From contig CM119371.1 in the NCBI GenBank assembly GCA_051294905.1, positions 1,056,001 through 1,120,000 of the forward strand: a stretch of DNA of 64,000 bases, written 5' to 3'. Under the pieces are notes generated by a model that was given only the letters and a program-made list of their open reading frames with translations, made no database searches and had not been told where the DNA came from. Within the stretch, counting starts at the first letter, position 1. Every line of letters begins with the position of its first letter. A program made the position numbers and the translations under genes. Of this stretch, positions 6,001 through 21,000 are shown in pieces. Origin of the DNA: Botryllus schlosseri. Taxonomy: Eukaryota.

Positions 6001-9000
6001 TAGTGAGTCCTATATTACAAGGGAGATAAACCCTGCAGTAAAAAACGCTGTTATCATTGGGCTGGGCACAATGAGTCGAGTGCTCAAATCTGAATCGAAT
6101 AATAATTTTAATGATTCAGGCTGAGTAGTAAAAGTCGATTTTCTCAAGTACTGAAATTGTCCGTTCGTCGACACTGAAAGTTACTTTATTGACAAAAATT
6201 GTAGTTTTGACAGTATTTGTCACTTTTGAAGCCTTGAAATCACGATTGGTTGCATAGCAGCATATCAAACATATCGCACAAAGCTACAAACGTTACTGGA
6301 ATAACATATTTTCAAAGTCATGATCATCGCCCAAAATAGCCACTAACTGCAATGAAATTGGTATGTTCGAAAATATACCAAAGTATCTTTATTGTGATGC
6401 ATAACAGGCATTATAATATTTAAGGCGACATAAAAGGTACATATTTGAACTTCAACATATTAAATTCTGTTATGACGTCATAACGAGTAATACTCGGATA
6501 GTCGACTCGACTCTAAGCTTTATATGTGATTTAGAATCGAATCACTCGGACACTCGATTTTTCCCTGCTCTAGTTATAATCAGTGCACAATTTCGCTTGC
6601 AATGTCAAAATCATTGTGTTGGCCTGAAAATCAGATGCGCACTTTGTTGATTAGGAGTAGTAATTTTCTGTTGCGCACTAATTCATGTCGACAGGCACAC
6701 TTTTGAATTTTGACGATGCTGACATTGTTACTTTTTATTTACGCAGTGCATTTTGTAGGGGGACACGCCGTTTGCTTACGCAAATGTGACATAATTTTTT
6801 AAAATATTGCTGAACAATTCGATCACAGCCAGACTGGCTGGTATCGATCACACCAATATCGAATTTCATTACATTGCATTCATTTCATTCATGGTCAATG
6901 TAGTAGAAAGTTGATTTTTGTTGATGAGGTCGTGACATTAGCTCAGCGCTCTTATTGCTGCCACTACTTTACATAATCCCCCATTTCACTAAATTCGATT
7001 ACATAGCTCGATATTGATGACACAGTGCGGATATTAAAACATCATATCAGTGGGTAAAAACCCTACGGCTTCGGGATGAAAGCAGAGTGGGACTGTTAAA
7101 AAATTATTTAGAATTCACTGGCTATGTGATAAAATTGTTAGGTTGGTTGAAACAACGCTGTACACCTAATTTGGCTTCAAGTCCAATCAGTAGAAGCAAG
7201 ATTATTGCTGTAAAAAGTTTTGAATTTATGATTTAAAAAAAATCAAAGTTTTTCTTTCAACCCCATAAAATTGTTAGGCAATCAGGAGTGATGATGCATA
7301 CCAAATTTGGCTCAATTCCAACCGCTAGGAGCGAAGTTATTGCCGTAGTAAAATTTCCAATTCCATTATTTTATAGGAAATAATTACAGCTTTCAATACA
7401 ACATCCATTGTAGTACAATATTGAAACTCGAATACCTTTCGGCACACATTAAAGGGATTTTAATGGATTTAGAAGCAAAACCAAATCTGTTCAACTCCCT
7501 TCAGTGAGCCGTTTACTCTTGAAAGAGGCAACAAAAGTCTTCGAGTTTATTAAATATTCTACTACAATGAATTTTGTATGGAAAGCTATATTCAAGTTCT
7601 GTACCACGAATCAGCTATTTGAATAAATAATTAAAGAGTTAGCTACCGTAAAATTATTTTTTTCGAGTCCAAATTTTTTCTACCGCAATAACTTCGCTTC
7701 TAATGGGTGGAATTGAGCCACATTTGGTGTGGATCGTCTCTATTGACAGCCCAACAATTTTAAGTTGTTGACAGAAAAATTTCAAAACTTAATTTTTTAA
7801 TGATAAATTCAAAATATTCTACTACAAGAAAATCGCTTCAACTGGTTGCAATTGATCCAAAGTTGGCATGCAGCGTTGTTTTCGCCAACCTAACAATTTT
7901 ATAACATAGCCGAAGAAATCTGAAGGTTTTTTGAACAGCCCTGATGCAGTGAATGTATGCATAATGCGTTCTATCACAACTATGGCGTCACCAATCACGT
8001 GCGATTGTCACGTCACAAGTCTCCGCATACCCACATAAAATTATAGTGGCTTGTTAGTACACAACTAAGTCATAGAATCGATCTCACTTTCCAATCCAAT
8101 TTTCCAGATAGCGATTCAATCCGACGATGTCCGAGAAGTGAACGTAGTGCTGTTGCTGAGAACTTATTGCGACGCAAATCCACTTCCTTCACCTGGAATG
8201 ATGAATGAAATATGAATACAATGCCTGCCAATATCATGTCAAACTAACAGCGCTTTGCACAGACTTATTCTGGGCACATTTTGGAAGTTTAGTATGTTCA
8301 ACATCATTGCGATCCCCATAATAAAGGCAAACGACCCTGGGTTTAGAGCAACGGTCTTTTACTAATCCATTCGAACAGCTTCAATCAATTCTAGGAATAC
8401 ACCGTGCTCTATAATTGAGATTGCGATTTGATTTCAGTGAATGATGGCTAATTTTATTCACTCTCGATTTCATTTTTGCGAGCGAGGCGGCCACAGTAGG
8501 ATCAACTGTAAGTTGTAATTGAGCTGCATGTAATTATTTATCTTTTCTCATGCTATTTAAATTGTCAGTGAAGCATTTCTATTCTGTGTAATTGTAATTT
8601 GTTAAAAATTTTATTAATTACAAATTCAATTGCATTGTTATTGAAACCTGACAATCACAACATAAAATAATTAGCCCATTAACATGGGTGTTCTATGCGT
8701 ACCTCTTAAACTAATTCAGCCATACTCAACTGTTTCCCATAGGCCAACTTCAGCTCCAACAGAAAACTTTGTGAATTACAATATAGGCTATCGAACAAAA
8801 TCTTAACATTTCATAAATTGACGAAAAGCAAATAATCTCTTCTGTAACCTGTGCTTCCTACACCACGGTCAGTGTTTTTTTAATCTCTTTTAATCTCTTT
8901 AAAGGGGCACTGCGCTCAAAAAATGATGTGGTCTCAAATTGAAGAGTAGAACGAAAAAAAAATTTTGGCCGCAGCCGTTTTCTTCAGAACGCCACCGTAA

Positions 9001-12000
9001 TGGAGCTGCAATTTATTGAAATTTCCAGAGTTGCAGCAGTCGCGGCTCCGGATAATCTCTTAACCCGTAACATGGCACGATGACTTCATCGTCGCACTTG
9101 CTCGACGCGATTACGCAGAGGACGAACTTTAGATAGTTGTCAGTCGATGTTATGAATGACTCATGTCTTGCACACCAAGGCGGCGCTCAACGTACGGTGT
9201 TAGGTCAGGAGGATTTGTGTCTGGAGCTTGTCACGACTCTATAGTATTTGCCAGTTGAATGATACTGAGATGCCGTTACAGTTGTATATTGATGCAGATA
9301 CAGCTGTCATTTTCAAGATGTATTATTGACTGCACAGTGCACAACCTTTGGAGTAGTGGTCTTGCGGAAGAGACAGACACATGATATTTTGCATCATTTA
9401 CCCATGGCATAGCAACTGTCTTGATACGGTCTAGTTTACTTGTTCAAGACACAGATGTATAGATAATCAACACGAAAATTTCATTCTCATCAAAGTTCCA
9501 ATATTGTTGTGGAATTTTTTGTCGTAACATTGTTGTTCTCAGTTTCACAAACGAATCTTCTGTCTCCATCAGTTCATTCATGCAATTCCTTTGACACGTA
9601 GATATCGTAAAATTTGTTAAAATTATTAATGGTAGTGAAGAAGATCTTGTTGATGAATTAACTTCTGATGAAGATACAGATGTAGAAGATTTCGATGATA
9701 TCACGATATTTGGTGAGAGCCTGCCGTATCAATTCGAGCCACAATATTCAGAGGAGGAATTCGCCCGTCTTGTTGCAACTCAAGAAGCACAAACTCATGT
9801 CTCTGTAAGTATTGTACCTGTGTTTCTTGAATGCAATTTATCAATCTCATTGTATTGGTCAAAGGAATCGTCAGAAAACCAGAGTCAACTTCGGACACTT
9901 GACAACAATGAATGGTGCAGTTGCTTGAACTGTGCATCCATGACAAACCAGAATGAACGCGTCTGCTGCAGGGAAATACAACAAATAATGGAGCTTCTGG
10001 GGAATGGAGGGTCGACTTGCATAACAGAACATGACGATTTTCTCGTACATATACAATTATACATCCCTCCATTCTTGAAACGTTTTTCAAAGTGAACAGG
10101 AAAAATTGGAATAATAACAATCAACCACATGGTCCTGGCAGAAGGCTTTCTAACAAGTGGGTCCTAGAACATTTTGTTTGTGTTGTTTAGTATTGGACTT
10201 ATATGTATGCGACAGGGTCTTGGGACTTATGACATGGTTCCTGGATATAAACGGCAATCTCCTGCATTCTTTACATTTTCTCGCATGCTTTTATATAAAT
10301 GCCTACACTTTATAAATTGGGAGCATTATACTGTCATATATATGCTGCTATTACTTTTCAGCATTATTTTTATTGCTGCAATATACTTTGATATTTTCCA
10401 ATTGCAGAAAATATCGCTTGGTGTCTTATGGACACATACTGGAATGAATTATTGAAGGCGACGTTTTGGGTAGCAAAAACAGGATGCCCTTGCCAGCCTG
10501 CATCGTGACTGCTATAAGGAAAAAGTACCCTAGTGATGATGGACTGTATGTCGGTTTCAAATGGCCGATAGAAAACGAACTGTGATTGATAACACTGCGG
10601 CTATGCTATATAAGTCGAAATCAGTTCTGTTGCTGTATTATTACACAGTGAACTGGAACTGTTTGCATTCTATATTCCACGAATGCCTGCAGGGCCTGAT
10701 ACATCAAGACTACTTTGCTTACTCGTTATTTATTAAAATTTATTAAAATAAATAATAAAAAAGAAACATCAAAGGACTTTATAGCCAGGGTATTACAACG
10801 GGGCTGTCAGGCAGTGTGGAAGAATGAAATTGAGCTATTTAGCTATGCAGCAATGCACCACATTCCATTCAACTTGAAGATAGGGATTAGTAAGTCACGT
10901 TCTAGAACGACGTTTTGAAAGTAATTCCTCTTTAGAGGGGGCTGGTTCTGGTGCAATGCTGACTGGATGCACACTTCTTGAAATGTTACTGGGAAAGTTG
11001 ATGCCAGTGCAATTCTCAGTAGTTCGCCTCAAAAGCTCTCTCGCATAGTGGTTCGTCTTCTTAGTTCGCCTCAAAAGCTCTCTCGCATAGTGGTTCGTCT
11101 TCTTTTCATACATGTTTTTCAAGATCCACTCTTTTGCTGACCGAGAGTAACATTTTTTGTATCGTGGAGCACCTGCTTAAACAAATAAAAAGTAAGTAAC
11201 TAAGTACCTTGACTTGCAAACATTTCATCTGTACAGCAAACCTGCTCGTGTCACCGCCTGAAATCTACCAACATTCTCATTGTGGTCCAGGACAGCCAAT
11301 TTGGTTCGTGCAAGCATCGTGTCATAAGTAAAATGAAGACGTTTAGGTGCAAATTTCAATATGACGTTGTGATAAACTTCCAATGATCCTAAAAAAGTAA
11401 GGTGTGAATTGTAATGATCTGACCATGCTCCGAAAACTGGTGTGCAGATGTGATGAGTCAAAAAATTACCAGTATGTTTGAACAGAGTCATCTGCTCCAA
11501 ATCCCGGATCAAACTTTTGTTTTCTATCAAAGATTTCAATGCTTTGAAACTAGGAGATCCACATTGCAACCATCTAGTTCTTAGGCACTGATCCCCAGTC
11601 AAAGTGCCATGGCTGCAGGAATATGTCTCCCCGTCAACTGTCCACTCATGTTCGCCGGTGATGTGATGCAGAAGAGATAACCATCTTCTTTTTAGCACCT
11701 GCAATTGCATATTGTTATATAAAAAGTTCCTAATTTGTGATGTCAGACATAGTTGATATGTAGACTTACACTGCAATCTTGACCACAATACTACTGACAG
11801 CACCACCACAAGTGATTAGTGATGCTTCTTGTCCATAGTAGCAAGTCTTCCATACCTTTCTTCTTACCCAGAGACACCAACTTTTTTTTCAGTCCTGAGA
11901 AACGGTTAGTAAGGCAAAAGAAGATTCAAATAATAACAGTATTCAGTTACCTTTGCAGACATGCCACACATCAAACTGGTGATTGATTGATGGATATTTA

Positions 12001-15000
12001 TCCTTCAACAATTTCCTGATGCTTGGTGCCCGGTCAGTCACAACGGTTTCAATCGGCAAACCTTGAGCAAGTAATGCATCCAAGCACGCTCCATACCAAC
12101 TTTTTCCATTGCAACACTGCTGGAGCACTCTGTTTTTTGAACCAATTCGACGTGGACAATCTTCTCAGTCTTCTCCTCCATAAATGAATAAACCATATAT
12201 TTTGCAGAAAACCCAGGTGAGTCCGATCGCCCATCACCCATCAGTGTAATTGGTTTACATTGACCCTTCATGTCCCGTAAAACATCCTCCATATGTTCCT
12301 CATAGTAGGTCGCAATAGTTGGCAAAATGTATTGCGATTGTATTTCATAAAAACGACGTTCCGAAATGTAGTTAGTGTCCAGTAATTTGAAAACATCTGC
12401 AATATCAGTGTACGTGGCTCCCGAATATATTGTCGCGCCAACAGTAGAAAGGTTCATTGCCGACATCTTTCTGATTTCTATCTTGGTCGACGAGATTCCT
12501 ATGGCACTAAACCACTGTCGTCTTAGTGCAATTTCAGAAGGAATTTTATGAAGAGTATGCGATTCGTCATTCCTTTTGACATCACACGATGTAACGGCAC
12601 AACTTATCCATGTCATTGCAGCTTGCTATTATGTCTATGTATATTCTATATACTATTACGAAGACTCTGAGTAGAGCAAGACAATAACGTAGACAAGTGC
12701 TTTTCAACCTTTTTGAGCTCCATTCGTACTTTTTTTAAAAACAATTTAATTCGCACCAGCCAGCTGGAATTTATTACACAAAAAGAAAATGAAAAGCTTA
12801 TCACTTTTTGTATTTGTAGACCTTCCTGTAGGTACAGAGCGTCATTATTTCACATTTAGTGTATCGTATTGCTGATTAATCAAATACTAAAATCACTGCA
12901 GTAGAAAAATCACCGATATCGCACTTCCGCTGTTCTCAAGGTCTTCGTTGCTTTTTCTGCGGGTATCGTGCAGTTATTTCTTTCGAAGCTTAAAGGGCGA
13001 ACCCATGAACAATATTCACTCGCAACAATATCACTTTCCACTAAATCGACGTATTATGTCAACGCTATATGAATGTGTGCCGAAATTCCAATACTTCGCA
13101 TTCAAATCAACACTGGCATCGCACACTATTTCCTATAATGTAGGGTTATCATATTTTGGATTCGGGAAAGGAGGACGTTCGCACAAGTACGAACCGTCAT
13201 ACAGGTTGAAAAGCACTTTATTCTGTAGCCGTTTTTCAGAGAAACAGTAATTTCTTATCCACAACACGAATACCACCAGTCAGGGTTCCCCATGAACATG
13301 ACAAAATTCATGACATTCAAAATTGGTGGTTCGGGTACTGTAGGAAAATTCATCATCCCTAACCAAAATCCAACGGCACGCAAACCTAACCTGAGCCCAC
13401 AACTCCGCAGCTGACCCTAAAACATATATAATATATTCATTATATTGTAATGTTACTAATCCCCAAGCCATAATTTTAAGATACTCTCAAACCCTCATCT
13501 TATGATTCTCCAACCTGAATGCGAAACCAATTATGACCGCTCTGAATTTTGAAATGTTCAGAGGGCACACTAATTGGTGATGGTAATGTTTTATACATAA
13601 CATAAGAATAGGACATGATCTATTCCTTCCCTCAAGAAATAGAATACACTAGGCCCGATTACTAGAAAAATCTAGTGACTGAATATCGTCCGTGGAACGC
13701 CGTATCTACACCACCTTGGCGTGTTAGACATATTTGCTTCAGAACATCGGCTGACTTCTATCTGAAGCTCGTCCTCTGCGTGACTGCGTAATCGCGTCGA
13801 GCAAGTGCGACGATGAAGTCATCGTGCCATGTTACGGGTTAAGATATTATCCGGAGCCGCGACTGCTGCAACTCTAGAAATTTCAATAAATTGCAGCTCC
13901 ATTACGGTGGCGTTCTGAAGAAAACGGCTGCGGCCAAAATTTTTTTTTCGTTATACTCTTCAATTTGAGACCACATCATTTTTTGAGCGCAGTGCCCCTT
14001 TAATCTCTCTGAGGCATACTGCAGCTATTGCAAAAAGAAATTCAAGTTTTCAACTAAGACTTCATCAGGCTAGATCACACATTTGTAGAGATGTTATCCC
14101 AGTCTTATCTCCTATCTTAGCTTAATATACTGGGGCCAGAACCTTTCCGCATCCTAATGTTCATCAAATGCAGTCGAACAGTTTTGAGCAAGTGAAAATG
14201 TAACTGCGAACAAAAATTTTGTAATTAGTAGTTATCGGGAGATTCTTTGCTTTTGCATTTATTTCAATTTTACACACCATATTGGTATCATCCTTATCGC
14301 CTTACCAATTACATTTTATTGACCTTACTCAGCTCCGAGTATTCGTTTGAGTACATTTCATTGACTTTCTTGTATCCTATTCGCTATTAGTCGTTGCCAG
14401 TCGCTCGAACTTTTGATTGTTAGTAGTCGCTTACAAAAATTTTCTTTTTTTTTTGTATTTTTCAGAGCCAATGACTAGGAATACTTTGAATACGTTCAAG
14501 TTTTTTTATTTCTAATTAAAGGGTATTCTGCATAGTACGAATCATGAATGAAACATGAATAGCTTGAGATTGTTGCTAAATACGTCGCTACAGTTCAGTG
14601 TTGGGATCAAGTCACTACCTTCGAGTCACGAGTCATCTCGAGTCATTGCACATTTTGACTCGTGTCAAGTCAAGTCAAATGATTTTCGAAGGTGACTCGA
14701 GTCAAGTCAAGTCACTCGTTTTTTGGATGTGACTCGATTCACGTCAAGTCAAGTCAAGTTAAGTCGAGTCACGAGTCAAGCCACAATTCAAGTCAAATTG
14801 AATTTTCGAAGTATCAGCGACGATTCAAAGTCATTACATTTTGCTAGATGTGAGAAAGACAGGTTAATTATCCATTTATCTTGCATCAAATAATGAATAT
14901 AAAGTTTTGTATGCATGCAAGAAGGCGTTGTGTCTATCACGCACACGTAGACCCGCAAAAAAATAGGCGACTAACTGTATAGCTATGCTACAGTCTGTTA

Positions 15001-18000
15001 ATATCAGCCAATAGGATCGAATACGAAGCCTCGTGAAGTTGTAACAAATTGATATGGTACAATACACTACCATCTACACATCCGTGAGAAAACAAACATA
15101 TCAACTATATTCACCAGATTTAAATCATACAAGAGGGGTTGGTAAAGGTAATCAATGGGCCATGCTAGCACACGCTGTTGTTGAATACTTCTTCTTCTAC
15201 TACTATTACTACTACTACTACTACTACGACAACGTAACCTATGATCATTTCGCTTGTGGTGAATGTATTTGTGATTCAATAATGGAGGATCATTCAAACG
15301 TACATTCCTCTGAATGCCTGGTTACTTTCACAAGTGACACAAGGTATCGCTAAAAATATGAACATACACAAAATAAAGGGATTTAATTGATAGCGTTTAC
15401 TTGATGACTTGAAATTGAGTCGTAAATTTTGCTCAGAGTCACGAGTCAATCCGCATTTTTGAAGCGCCAAGTCAAGGCAAGTCATTTCTGCAAATTGACT
15501 CGAGTCAAGTCAAGTCATACGAAAAATTTGACTCGAGTCATCCTAACACTGCTAAAGTTGTCAAAGATCACCTGAATAGCGAATCAATCAGACTTTCACC
15601 AGTAATTGTAATTATAATTGTACTTACATGTTCAGCAGTAGTTGTAATTGTAGTCAGGGTTCTAAAGACTCGAGTCACGATTTTCTGATGACTCGACTTA
15701 ACTCGAGTGATTTTCGCAAAATTCCGAAATGACTCGACTCAACTCGAGTTAATATGTGTATTGATCCGACTTGGACTCGAGTCAATACGCATGACTCGAA
15801 CCAAGTCATATGACTCGAGACTCGCCAACCCAAGACCGACATTTCATTGTATTTTCAAAGCATAGTTAAGTGACCACACTATTGGTATTTCGCCTATTGA
15901 TACTGGTAAGCTGCTTGAAAATGCGATCAAAAACTGCTACAAGTGAGGAAATTTAATATATTACGAATGCGAACCATTTGATATCAACAAACTGGGTTTT
16001 AAGAAGTGGGTTACCAAGAATTTACCCGGAAGCCGAGAATTCAACACAATCACTTGGACTTGAGTCATAATGCCATGACTCGGACTCCACCCTCTGATCG
16101 CTGACTTGGACTCGGTGGTGAATTGAAAATGATTCGACTTGACTCGAGTCAAAACTATGAAAATGAGATTAACTTGTTTCTCGAAGCCTTCGTGACTAGG
16201 TTACAACCCTGATGGTAGTTGTAATTTGATAATTTAGCATAGAGTAATTGTAATCTTGTGTAATTAAAACATGCAACAAAGTAATTGTAATTGAAATTGA
16301 ATTCAATTAATTTAATCGATTCAACACTGGAGATGGCCCTATATTTAAATTAATACAAAGTGTACTAAATTGCGCGTAGCGCCGAGAAAAAATTTCAGTA
16401 GCATAAATCTGCTATTATTTTTTATGTTTATTTGGAAAAGATTTTGAGCGTACTTCAAGCCTTCAAAACTATGGACTTTGAGGTATATATTAAAATTTTC
16501 TTCCAGACACACCAACGTGTACAGTGAAATCCCGAACATGTCCCGGAAAATCCAGACGTATACCAATCCTAGTAACTTGAGAATTTCGGACAATCATCCG
16601 TGTGCGTATTTTTCAACAAGAGCAATGTTATTGTGATGCAACGATGCGTTCGGATCATACCCACACCGCACTGCGATGATCTAAATCAATGGTGTCAAAG
16701 AAACCGAATGTTGAGTAATATTGATAGGCCAAATTATACCCAGTTACCCACTCTAGTGACAAAATGTGAGCACCGAGTTCACAGGTTTGTGTAAAATTGT
16801 ATTGCGAAGTATTTCTTCATTGAAGCGAAAACGCAATGCAAAATCGTTATATACAGGTCACACAGAGATTAAAAAGTGACAAATCATGGTGCTAATATCT
16901 GTTTTCGCAGCGCTAAGTCAGTTTTTGGTCAAACGGTCCCTGTCCTCCACACAAACCTGAAACGGGATTCAATATTGCTGAGCCAAATTCCAACGTCACC
17001 GTTTATAGTTAAATCTATCTTATTTCTCACAGCATATAGTCAGGGCTAACGCCAGATCAGAACTGAAACAATAAGAGAGCGTAAAAGCATACCACCTTAA
17101 ACCGTCGTTAGGGCCATTGCTTCAGCTGTTTATATATCTATTCAACACGCAAATTGTACTTTTGCCAAATTGATTGCTTGCGAATAAAAGTGTTACTAGA
17201 TTAGAACTCATATCATCCGTCACATAATGTAATATACTATCTTGTACACCGGCTTCATAATAAAGTAGTACAATGGCAAAATAGGGCATTGGATTTGAGA
17301 TAACATTTTGGAAGAATTCGACTGGTCCAGCCAACAAACTATCTGTAGGTTTGAATCCAGCCTGCGACGCAAGTTGAGTTTGAACACCCTGATTTCAATC
17401 CTACTCTTATATCAAGACTCCAGCATTAAATAGGTAATATGTCTGAAGATAGGAAAACTAGTATTCGATGCACGATGCGATTTTAGTTGACTGATATGCT
17501 ATTCTGATTTTTTTCTCCGGTGACCTGTAGTCCCCCGCTTGAAGTCACACTACTTATTGTGGACGGCCTTGAACTCGCATTTTGATTATAGGGTCCGTAC
17601 ACATGGCACTCGCTCGGGCCCGACATGCGACTTGAAATAGCCTATACCTACCGAGCCACATATCAATTCAAGTATTTTATGCTTGAACTCACTTGTATTC
17701 TTTTTTCAATACTCCCAGTAATGATCGCCAAAAGCTCTGCATTAATGCTGCAGTCATATAAATTCAAGCGATACAGACTTTCACTCCTTACTGCAAGCGA
17801 TCCGACAATATGAGCCTCATCGCGACTCAATGAGATGCCAGATGCATCAATATCGGAAATTTGTCTCATAAGATCGTCGTCTCCCGATTCATAGATTGCT
17901 GTATACAGTTCCATGCGAACGTGGTTGTCCTCTTTCTTCTTGAGTTGCGAACGAATTGATCCACCAAGAATTTGTCTTTTCAGTGACCGATTTGAGACTG

Positions 18001-21000
18001 TCAATCAAATAATGCACCTCACTATATCATATTACAATCGAGTAAAGAGAAACAACAGTTTTCCCTAAGGCACAGCCATGGAAGGCGTACTTGCTCACAA
18101 ATGTACGCCTGTTTTCACAACGATACAATGAATCCATGACATATGTCATTGTTGTAAAATATAGATCCTAAAGGCGAATCGTTAAAATTTCCAATTGCCT
18201 GTCGCAGATTTTCCGGCTGTCTACGTATATGCGACTTTATGTACGCAGACCGACAGAATATGATACAGTTCAGATTGGATTGATCTCTTATTGCATTGTC
18301 ACAATAGTGCGATAGAGCATGAATTCAATAAGCTCGCTGGATCCGTACCCACCATATTGTCAAGCGTGAGATATTGATTTTCTACATTTAAATTAATCGA
18401 AATTCTTTTGCAACTTTGCAAAATATATAATTTTTACCACTATTGAATGTAAACATGGAATGGCAACGAAAAAATGGCCAATTACGCTGAGTGATTGTTC
18501 GGAGCAATGAACGATCACAGCTAGTAACCTTGACTCAAAAAGCCTAAGACTCGGTTCACAATTGAGTTACTCAGATACTTAAAATATGACACGACCAAAC
18601 TCGCTTATAAAGACGGATAATTCACAGACTTGTGTTTAATGGGAGTTTTCTTATGGATTTATGTTTTATCATATATTTTGCAAATTGCTCGCAAGCGTCT
18701 TTCGTCGTTATGTACCTGGCAAATGAATGCCGGCAATCCAAGATGTGAACTAACCATTAGGCTTATCAGTGTCAATATCAGTTAGTTAAAAGAGTTATGT
18801 AGTATACTGCTTAAAAAATAGGAAAATCTGGCATGGACATGAAAAGTGTCGGTGAAAATATCACTGTAATATAATTTTGTTTTGCGGGTTTTGCAATGAC
18901 CAAGTGACAAATACGGTTTTACTGCATTCTATCCGCCTTGAAATTGAATCGATAATGTTATCGGTAAACGTATTCAGGGATAAATATGATCGTTCTGCAT
19001 TGAATGAAGTAAATGCATCGGGATAATTAAGGGCTACTACGGTAACATATGTCTCATAACTATCCGTTTTATGGCTTTCAACGTCTTGAAAGTAGCAGGA
19101 ACACGACCACGAAAAACGATATCCTCCATTGAGACCCACCTTCATGAACATCATCCGGTTTTTCATCGTAAATGAGGCCGCACACAAATCTGCGGACGAC
19201 CGCCCATCGCTCTTTGTGCAGGTGTTTAGAGTTGAAGCTCATGAACTTTTTACGCGTCATTTCCACTACAAAGCCCGCTGCAAGGAATTCCTGGAGACTT
19301 TGATGGCAGAAGAAGAAAATGAAACTGCCATCCAACAGATTGCAACTGAGGAGGTTATTTCCTGGAACCTTCATCATGAGATCTTGAACTTCATCTTTTG
19401 AAAGTCTAAACCTCTTCAAATCATTTTCAGAGAATGTCACTCTCCCTTCTTTCATGCCAAGATATGCCATTGCTTTCAATTTATTGATAATCCCCGCAAT
19501 AGCATCAGCCTTTCTAATGTTTTTCACGCTACTTAAAGTGGATATAATTTTTTTGTAGAGTCCTGTGACCGTCTTGGGAGGAGGCTCGTTCGGATTTTTG
19601 GCCATGATCACAGCGGTTAAGACCAGAAAAACGGGAATGGAAACTAAATTGATCAGCCTTGGTGACATCGTTTCTATCCTCGCCCATGCTTCATCCCCAT
19701 GATCATGTATAAGAAACACAAAAAGCTTCTTTGCGTCATCTAGATTCAGACCAGAAAGTGTGATGATGTCGGTGGGTCGAGCTTCCGCGGGCAGATCCGA
19801 GACTTGGAATTCGCGGGAAGAGATGACGATCTTTGTATCAGCGAGCAGATTACGTGAGAGGATGTTGTACATGATCGTTGCTGCTTTGGCTTTACTATAA
19901 GGATTTATGTTCTCATCGCCATCTCTGTTGATTTTCCAAGTAGCCTGATCCAAGCCGTCGAAATATAAAACTGCTTCTGATTGATGTTCAAGCAACCACT
20001 GATACGCATAATCCTCGTCGATCTTATTCTGAAAGAGGCCTCCGAAGAGAAATTTAGATGGTTTCATGGATCTTTTATCTCGCATGCCTTTTATTTCTAT
20101 ATAATGTATCAATTTATACTTGAGCTGAGAGGGGCTTGCAGTGGCTCCTGTATTCGTGAGTGAATGCCCTAAAGTTTTTCTAGCGATTCTGCGCATGAGA
20201 GTGGTTTTCCCAGATCCTGCAGACGCAACTATAGCGGTGATAGAACTTTCCCCGATGATAAGTTGCTGCAAAACTTCATCTAGCTCGATGAATTTGTTGT
20301 CGTCAACTTTTTGTCGGAGGAATCCGAACTCCTTTCTGAATTGATTTTTAACCACCTCTTCCTTTCGCCAGAAGAAGAATTTTTTTTTTACTGCCACTTC
20401 CATTTCGTGCACCTCTTCATAATTGCCTTTGAAATATCCCGACTTAGTGACTCTTCTCATCTGGGGATGTACTTGGAAATCAGGTTTGTTGAGGTCGTCG
20501 GCGCCGATGTCTTCGAGGATTCTGTCCGCCGTCTTTTGAGACGCATTATCGTTTATGCATTTTATCAGGGCTGAAGCTTTTTCTGGAAGATAACAATATT
20601 CTTTCTTCATTATATTTTATGTATAGAAATGATCGGACAAAATCTATTACCTCTGTTTGGTAATATTTTATATAACCTAGAACCCAGGTATTAAAGAAAG
20701 ATATAGAGATTTATATAGTGAATATTGCTGAATTCAGTTCGGTAAACCCGGTACCCTAAATTTACCAAGATATCAATTCATTATGGTTGAGTACAGCATC
20801 GTAAATGCCGATAATTCAAGTCTATTCGTTTGTACGAACTTACGCGTAAGTTCCTCTCTCGCACCCATTCTCGGTATTGGTATGGAACCCCGCGGCCCTA
20901 GTCTGCCGAGATTTCCCACTACTTGCTTACTACCTCAAATTTTAGTGACTGTTTGTTATTATCTTCGTGTGCGCACTGCGCAGCATGCGAGAGTGGAGCT

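Follow-up and report, generated by a model that had tools for sequence, protein, structure and literature searches.

A KolX pseudogene in a probable Kol0-type Kolobok transposon, and the transcribed family of P2X7 ballast-like genes to which it belongs

In this study, a 64,000-nucleotide (nt) stretch of genomic DNA (contig CM119371.1, positions 1,056,001 to 1,120,000; hereafter the window) was found to carry at 8903-13999, with a probability of roughly 0.9 for identity and anatomy, a young cut-and-paste transposon of the Kol0 Kolobok type, represented here by a copy that is internally deleted and non-autonomous. Between its terminal inverted repeats lie the remnant of a transposase gene on the minus strand and, convergent with it, a KolX gene of three exons on the plus strand (9602-10585). 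The KolX copy of the window is a pseudogene inside a dead element: its start codon is lost, an 8-nt insertion shifts the frame, and a TGA interrupts the last exon. In its intact relatives, KolX is very probably a stand-alone protein of about 210 amino acids. Its N-terminus is acidic, a PYxFEP motif is present, and its putatively zinc-coordinating ballast domain shares homology with the tail at the C-terminus of vertebrate P2X7. Positions are window coordinates throughout, unless prefixed with L022:, which refers to the stretch holding the intact paralogue L022.

The bounds of the element were read from its ends. Two inverted-repeat arms, 8899-9118 and 13784-14003, are each 220 nt long including TTAA and 99% complementary; the repeat proper measures 216 nt. 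The left terminal inverted repeat (8903-9118, plus strand) starts with AG (5'-RR), the right one (13784-13999, minus strand) ends with CT (YY-3'), and TTAA target-site duplications stand outside them at 8899-8902 and 14000-14003. A weaker inner inverted repeat (79 nt at 77%) continues to about 9183 on the left and 13711 on the right. Among 10 copies, the window copy included, TTAA was present at all 16 of the termini found, and the outer flanks were unrelated; the copies are therefore independent insertions. According to Kojima & Bao 2022 (PMC9587614), Kolobok elements have TTAA duplications and RR..YY termini, the latter setting them apart from piggyBac, and the Kol0 group has a second protein, KolX. 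TTAA duplications, RR..YY termini and a second gene, KolX, were all found here, and the KolX gene lies between the inverted repeats in the window copy as well as in the full copies L022, L023 and L024.

The gene model of KolX was obtained by translation, paralogue alignment and RNA. When the plus strand was translated in three shifting frames (9595-10700), the acidic N-terminus, PYQFEP, WCSCLNC, VCC, CIT and LPAC were all found. Exon 1 (9602-9804) encodes the acidic N-terminus and PYQFEP; exon 2 (9865-10156) encodes WCxCxxC, CC and CIT, and is frameshifted by the 8-nt insertion; exon 3 (10408-10585) encodes YR...LPAC...IRKKYP...GFKWP and ends with the natural stop at 10583-10585. The exons are separated by intron 1 (9805-9864, 60 nt) and intron 2 (10157-10407, 251 nt), both with GT..AG borders and both seen as RNA joints on L022. 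The reading frame is open through intron 1, and its 20 would-be residues would form an insertion seen in no relative. Across the junction of exons 2 and 3, the relative P0002 (59% identical) is continuous. The KolX gene ends at 10585, and the last minus-strand frame of the transposase ends near 10895.

Comparison with 11 aligned paralogues showed the defects of the window copy. At 9634-9636, AGT stands in place of the start codon, which is ATG in 10 of the 11. The 8-nt insertion at 10050-10057 is absent from nine of them; the remaining two have 5 nt at this site and are likewise frameshifted. The TGA at 10445-10447 is a nonsense change from TGG, which is kept in all 11, and several missense changes are also private to the window copy. 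The preliminary description of this DNA had proposed a spliced plus-strand gene with these motifs inside the inverted repeats, convergent with the transposase and broken by the 8-nt insertion and the TGA. All of this agrees with the translation, the paralogue alignment and the RNA; the lost ATG had been overlooked. In L022, the spliced coding sequence (954-1124, 1185-1468 and 1720-1897) amounts to 633 nt and 210 amino acids, again with two GT..AG introns.

In the searched genome (495.5 Mb in 219 contigs), 40 scored candidates gave 46 matches to the KolX region, so that the number of additional copies is 40 or more; their identity is 82-99%. The full-length ones measure about 6.6 kb (L022, 223-6861; L023, 225-6821; L024, 368-6996), and KolX and the transposase travel as a pair in all full copies examined. 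The preliminary description had suggested that intact copies be sought: among 17 other copies translated, an open spliced KolX frame was found in seven (L002, L004, L005, L007, L008, L039, and L009, which has CT at the first donor), and the other 10 have nonsense or frameshift changes. L034, L035, L036 and L040, with 32-75 exon indel columns, were left out of this translation. One expressed family member, known from a contig of run X1, has a 27-nt in-frame insertion in KolX exon 3 (L022:1806) that resembles a duplicated LPAC...IRK segment.

Transcription of the family was examined in one raw RNA-seq run labelled with the same species (X24, of which about 6% was read) and three contig runs, aligned to L022:223-6861. 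The joint L022:1124>1185, which removes 60 nt with GT..AG borders, was covered by 41 raw reads with 25 different starts and by contigs; the joint L022:1468>1720 (251 nt, GT..AG) was covered by 11 raw reads with 10 starts. Both predicted KolX introns are thus confirmed. A 1560-nt contig of run X1 that joins 524-1124, 1185-1468 and 1720-2359 represents a fully spliced KolX mRNA. In X24, the depth per read orientation was about 3-23 in the KolX bins (L022:889-1998), compared with 0-8 in the transposase bins.

The KolX transcripts also carry letters that do not come from the element. In 16 raw reads, such letters are joined at L022:920-922, which corresponds to window 9600-9602; we take their first part to be a cDNA template-switch adapter. 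The 22 nt after the adapter form a leader identical to the 'Chordata 1' spliced-leader consensus given in Table 1 of PMC3795323. The leader is joined at an AG (9600-9601) located 32 nt upstream of the KolX ATG, so that the mature exon starts at 9602, where the preliminary description had the gene begin. The leader is absent from the element and identical to the published consensus; therefore, KolX mRNA is trans-spliced with a host leader. Tunicates are chordates that have spliced leaders, and this leader on KolX mRNA points to a tunicate as the probable host. The earlier label 'invertebrate' is consistent with the match to the 'Chordata 1' consensus (PMC3795323).

Genome-wide, the leader motif was counted 614 times, compared with no occurrence of a reversed control, and it is absent from the window. 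These 614 loci are dispersed, with unrelated flanks on both sides. Six of them were read (L025-L030, around position 1501): an AG|GT continuation was seen in three, and a hairpin-like GGACC...GGTC motif was present about 45-65 nt downstream in all six. No Rfam match was found on the six loci. The dispersed loci may be spliced-leader RNA genes or derivatives of them.

The relationship of KolX to the P2X7 ballast was examined at the level of both sequence and fold. Against the Pfam family P2RX7_C (PF20478; gathering cut-off 23.5 bits), exons 1-2 of the window copy scored 27.2 bits at profile positions 64-102, and exons 1-2 of L022 scored 26.3 bits at the same positions; L022 exon 3 scored 26.8 bits at 145-192. 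An exhaustive HMMER search returned 137 relatives at E<=1e-3, and 10 of these reached E<=1e-10. The resulting alignment has 132 rows, made up of 130 relatives and two L022 pieces (P0001, P0086, P0089, P0104, P0121, P0129 and P0136 were omitted; P0001, the one protein returned by a separate homologue search, is an unspliced read-through call of the same family and unsuitable as a spliced model). P2RX7_C is matched by 100 of the 132 rows, and THAP by one. The full-length spliced relatives P0016, P0020, P0053, P0034 and P0059 can be aligned over their whole length with both L022 pieces. A 14-row profile that included the KolX family of the window matched nothing but P2X7 in the PDB (four of four distinct sequences; best E 3e-9; residues 463-593).

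The fold test was made on the relative P0016 (214 amino acids, 41% identical to the L022 piece). An AlphaFold model built from the 132-row alignment reached a predicted local distance difference test (pLDDT) score of 86.3 and a predicted template modelling (pTM) score of 0.72. Foldseek placed P2X7 structures in all 14 top positions among PDB matches (E 0.007-0.15, probability 0.97-1.00, query-normalised TM 0.34-0.45), and the next match had E 2.8. VIA-align gave Z 9.4-10.8 for the same 14 entries, with a root-mean-square deviation of 3.1-3.8 over 117-122 residues, and Z 2.4 for the next entry; residues 56-210 of the model were superposed on P2X7 chain 417/472-595. A chance likeness between cysteine-rich sequences was considered in view of the weak single-sequence PDB matches (L022 exon 3 by phmmer, rat P2X7 567-597 at E 0.006; none for exons 1-2), but it can be regarded as negligible: two L022 exon pieces each exceed the Pfam cut-off at collinear profile positions (64-102 and 145-192), the profile matches residues 463-593 at E 3e-9, and the fold match is exclusive to P2X7. 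Given the Pfam scores of the window and L022 copies, the match is far beyond chance. The parallel with the P2X7 ballast drawn in the preliminary description is thereby borne out by Pfam, by the PDB profile and, through P0016, by structure, as is its assignment to a Kolobok with a KolX-type accessory gene by the TTAA duplications, the RR..YY termini and the ballast-profile matches.

The WCxCxxC, CC, CIT and LPAC motifs of KolX align with C477, C479, C482, C498, C499, C506 and C572 of P2X7 (numbering read off the alignment); seven conserved cysteines are described for the ballast and KolX (PMC9587614). The equivalents of R546, Y550 and R578 are kept in the KolX family. In rat P2X7, guanosine diphosphate (GDP) is contacted by R546, H547, R574, R578 and K583, and beyond deuterostomes only R546 and R578 are conserved, according to Rump et al. 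2020 (PMC7016195). No match to the P2X channel domain was found by Pfam in the frames of the window or L022; KolX stands alone and is not fused.

The transposase gene of the window (10895-12616, minus strand) is a multi-exon THAP/DDE remnant, recognised from its frames, Pfam matches and paralogue comparison. The THAP domain has lost its second half, and the transposase its N-terminal part, to an internal deletion of 1590 bp near 12479; one nucleotide is also missing near 12084, and three extra nucleotides are present in the transposase. The last transposase exon contains a 42-nt in-frame tandem duplication (11020-11103) that is single in the other copies compared. Copy L014 aligns unbroken across the deletion point and lies at a different genomic site; the deleted form therefore seems to have been mobilised. 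On the minus strand of L022, a complete THAP domain is present (49.6 bits). At least nine CT..AC joints in the RNA contigs correspond to GT..AG introns of the transposase on the minus strand; the nine are those displayed, and 14 further joints lie outside this set.

The putative DDE core gave weak MULE/Mutator matches (20.7-24.3 bits, below their cut-offs), and D-containing motifs are visible. Such matches, together with the PF20700 domain carried by Atlas neighbours, would fit a piggyBac or Mutator (MuDR) element whose second gene is a KolX-like accessory of the type found in a few piggyBac families. The target duplications of MuDR are longer than 4 bp, which counts against Mutator. As for piggyBac, it also makes TTAA duplications, and a few of its families encode a KolX-tail-like protein; however, most of the seven cysteines are missing in these piggyBac-borne proteins (PMC9587614), and all seven are found here. 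Moreover, the AG..CT termini have the RR..YY form described for Kolobok (PMC9587614), a THAP domain is present, and no piggyBac transposase match was obtained. A piggyBac or Mutator origin is thus very improbable, and the Kol0-type Kolobok remains the preferred identity of the element.

Alternative donors were found in two of the nine displayed transposase joints. One of them gives a 203-nt skip (L022:3162-3364, minus strand) that removes 49 residues in frame, including the VVTDRAPS motif with the presumed second catalytic aspartate; its donor was seen in transposase transcripts of the three contig runs and in two raw reads. The other (L022:2966-3056, minus strand) gives an 88-nt skip that shifts the frame, whereas a consensus GTAAGT donor 17 nt further on would preserve it. 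Together the two places correspond to about 11835-12100 in the window. These alternatively spliced transcripts may encode non-catalytic isoforms of the transposase. At the 3' end of the transposase gene, the spliced KolX contig reaches L022:2359 and overlaps in antisense with the last transposase exon (L022:2197-2430, about 10895-11100 in the window). The overlapping 3' ends of the two convergent genes could be a source of double-stranded RNA.

Sequence comparison within the family indicates that KolX was under purifying selection during diversification. Over 206 codons, L022 and the divergent subfamily copy L031 differ at 12 first, 5 second and 26 third positions; in the introns, 43 of 306 sites differ (Fisher test, second versus third positions, p = 1e-4; first plus second positions versus intron, p = 2e-6). 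L031 has kept all the cysteines and has one nonsense codon. Such selection would imply that the element needs the protein. A family that is selected, and also transcribed, spliced and trans-spliced in the manner of host genes, might instead be a host gene, a domesticated nanor-like ballast protein merely near transposon debris; stand-alone ballast genes with host functions do exist, for example nanor (PMC7016195, PMC9587614). However, KolX is located between matched inverted repeats with TTAA and travels with the transposase in full copies, at least 40 dispersed copies are present, and the window copy is broken three times. A host gene is accordingly very improbable, and KolX is best taken as a gene of the transposon.

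Several results weigh against the interpretation as a Kol0-type element with a functional ballast protein, or narrow it. The Kol0 placement of the transposase comes entirely from the architecture of the element, and joining the nine displayed joints yielded a 199-amino-acid frame, not a complete transposase. RNA reads at 95% identity may derive from any family member rather than from the window copy. With regard to homology, exon 3 of the window copy scored 22.4 bits against P2RX7_C (profile 168-192), just under the cut-off; the exon 1-2 piece gave nothing but chance matches by phmmer against the PDB (E 0.12 and 0.52); and the fold match belongs to P0016, not to the window family's own spliced protein, with no Foldseek match of this model to the PDB at E<=1e-3. 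Of the five residues that contact GDP in rat P2X7, three are changed here: L stands for H547, V for R574 and S for K583. When 12 copies are pooled, the differences amount to 2.9%, 2.2% and 4.7% at the three codon positions and 5.6% in introns, the copies being related and the counts not independent. Finally, the proposed role of KolX as cofactor or regulator of transposition has about an even chance of being right.

In intact sister copies, KolX is transcribed from inside the left end; the host spliced leader is added 32 nt before the ATG, at an AG, and both introns are spliced out. For the protein, it can be proposed that it would fold around two zinc ions held by the seven conserved cysteines, and that the two conserved arginines would perhaps let it bind a guanine nucleotide; nucleotide binding is possible though doubtful. 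KolX might then influence the THAP/DDE transposase in trans, either as a cofactor or as a regulator. In a more far-reaching version, the element would be a currently active two-gene tunicate Kolobok that relies on host mRNA processing and regulates itself in a P-element-like manner, in that leader-spliced KolX is commoner than transposase mRNA, the 3' ends overlap in antisense, a non-catalytic transposase isoform is made, and KolX serves as a zinc/guanine-nucleotide switch that times transposition. This version as a whole is unlikely.

The surroundings of the element were also examined. On the minus strand, an exon at 19081-20616 encodes NACHT and NOD2-WH in a 512-amino-acid open frame (NACHT, 53.2 bits), and the only convincing match of a leucine-rich-repeat pattern scan was at 17776 (within 17666-18004, minus strand). 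No other match to an NLR-type family was found by Pfam among the 67 minus-strand frames scanned; one sub-threshold DUF5845 match lies at 18391-18534. The element is located at least 5 kb beyond the last recognisable NLR sequence. It had been described as sitting within an intron of an immune-receptor gene; this was not shown, as the 29 minus-strand frames of at least 45 amino acids below 8899 gave no Pfam family match, and the element may simply lie downstream of the NLR-type gene. To the left, nested inverted repeats at 7090-7941 (arm lengths 111, 85 and 72 nt; 74-80%) frame about 850 bp, probably a small non-autonomous transposon or foldback element. Just right of the element, 14580-15860 holds many short repeats, direct as well as inverted, that resemble GACTCGAGTCA and yield long serine/valine/lysine-rich frames on both strands.

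Some features of this element recall the P element, whose THAP-bearing cut-and-paste transposase is guanine-nucleotide dependent and regulated by splicing. The comparison is an analogy, with no homology claimed: the GTP-binding part of the P element lies within the transposase itself, whereas the possible nucleotide binder here is a separate protein. Homology is found with the P2X7 ballast (PDB 6u9v/6u9w, 8tr5, 9e3m and others), which KolX matches over 463-593 and to which the model of its relative is similar at Z of about 10. Unlike the P2X7 ballast, KolX is separate from any P2X channel, carries an additional acidic N-terminal part with PYxFEP, and does not keep H547, R574 and K583; its zinc and GDP binding are putative. 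The nanor or ZCD proteins (PTHR36981; PMC7016195) are likewise stand-alone, ballast-only proteins with the same cysteine motif and a similar R546/R578 pattern. However, nanor belongs to the host genes and is expressed in zebrafish at the midblastula transition (PMC7016195), and the KolX described here is multi-copy and transposon-borne. The main text of Rump et al. (PMC7016195) does not mention tunicates, Ciona or amphioxus.

The closest known counterpart is the KolX of Kol0 (type family Kolobok-1_XT; PMC9587614), which is likewise the second gene in a Kolobok with TTAA and RR..YY termini, and likewise a small stand-alone protein similar to P2X7 at about 476-595 with seven conserved cysteines. 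Kojima & Bao 2022 (PMC9587614) reported that the KolX of Kol0 has the ballast fold, and traced the P2X7 tail to a fusion with KolX and nanor to the domestication of a KolX. Trees of KolX, nanor and P2X7 tails have been published as well. The preliminary description had presented the gene as relevant to the origin of the P2X7 tail; the kinship is real, but it had been published before (PMC9587614), and this copy adds no new idea on that origin. New are this family itself, the arrangement of its introns as supported by RNA, the leader spliced to its mRNA, and a host that is probably a tunicate; the hosts of Kol0 named in PMC9587614 include vertebrates, annelids, cnidarians and sponges. The present study adds a young multi-copy family with intact KolX and an RNA-backed gene model; its host, probably a tunicate, would belong to the close invertebrate relatives of the vertebrates. 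Considering that it is transcribed and under purifying selection, this KolX family would be a reasonable place to test zinc and guanine-nucleotide binding by the ballast outside P2X7, as well as the control of transposition. Set beside the Kol0 KolX as described, it shares the second-gene arrangement, the termini and the cysteine pattern, and differs in having two introns, a trans-spliced leader, a probable tunicate host and, in the window, a pseudogene.

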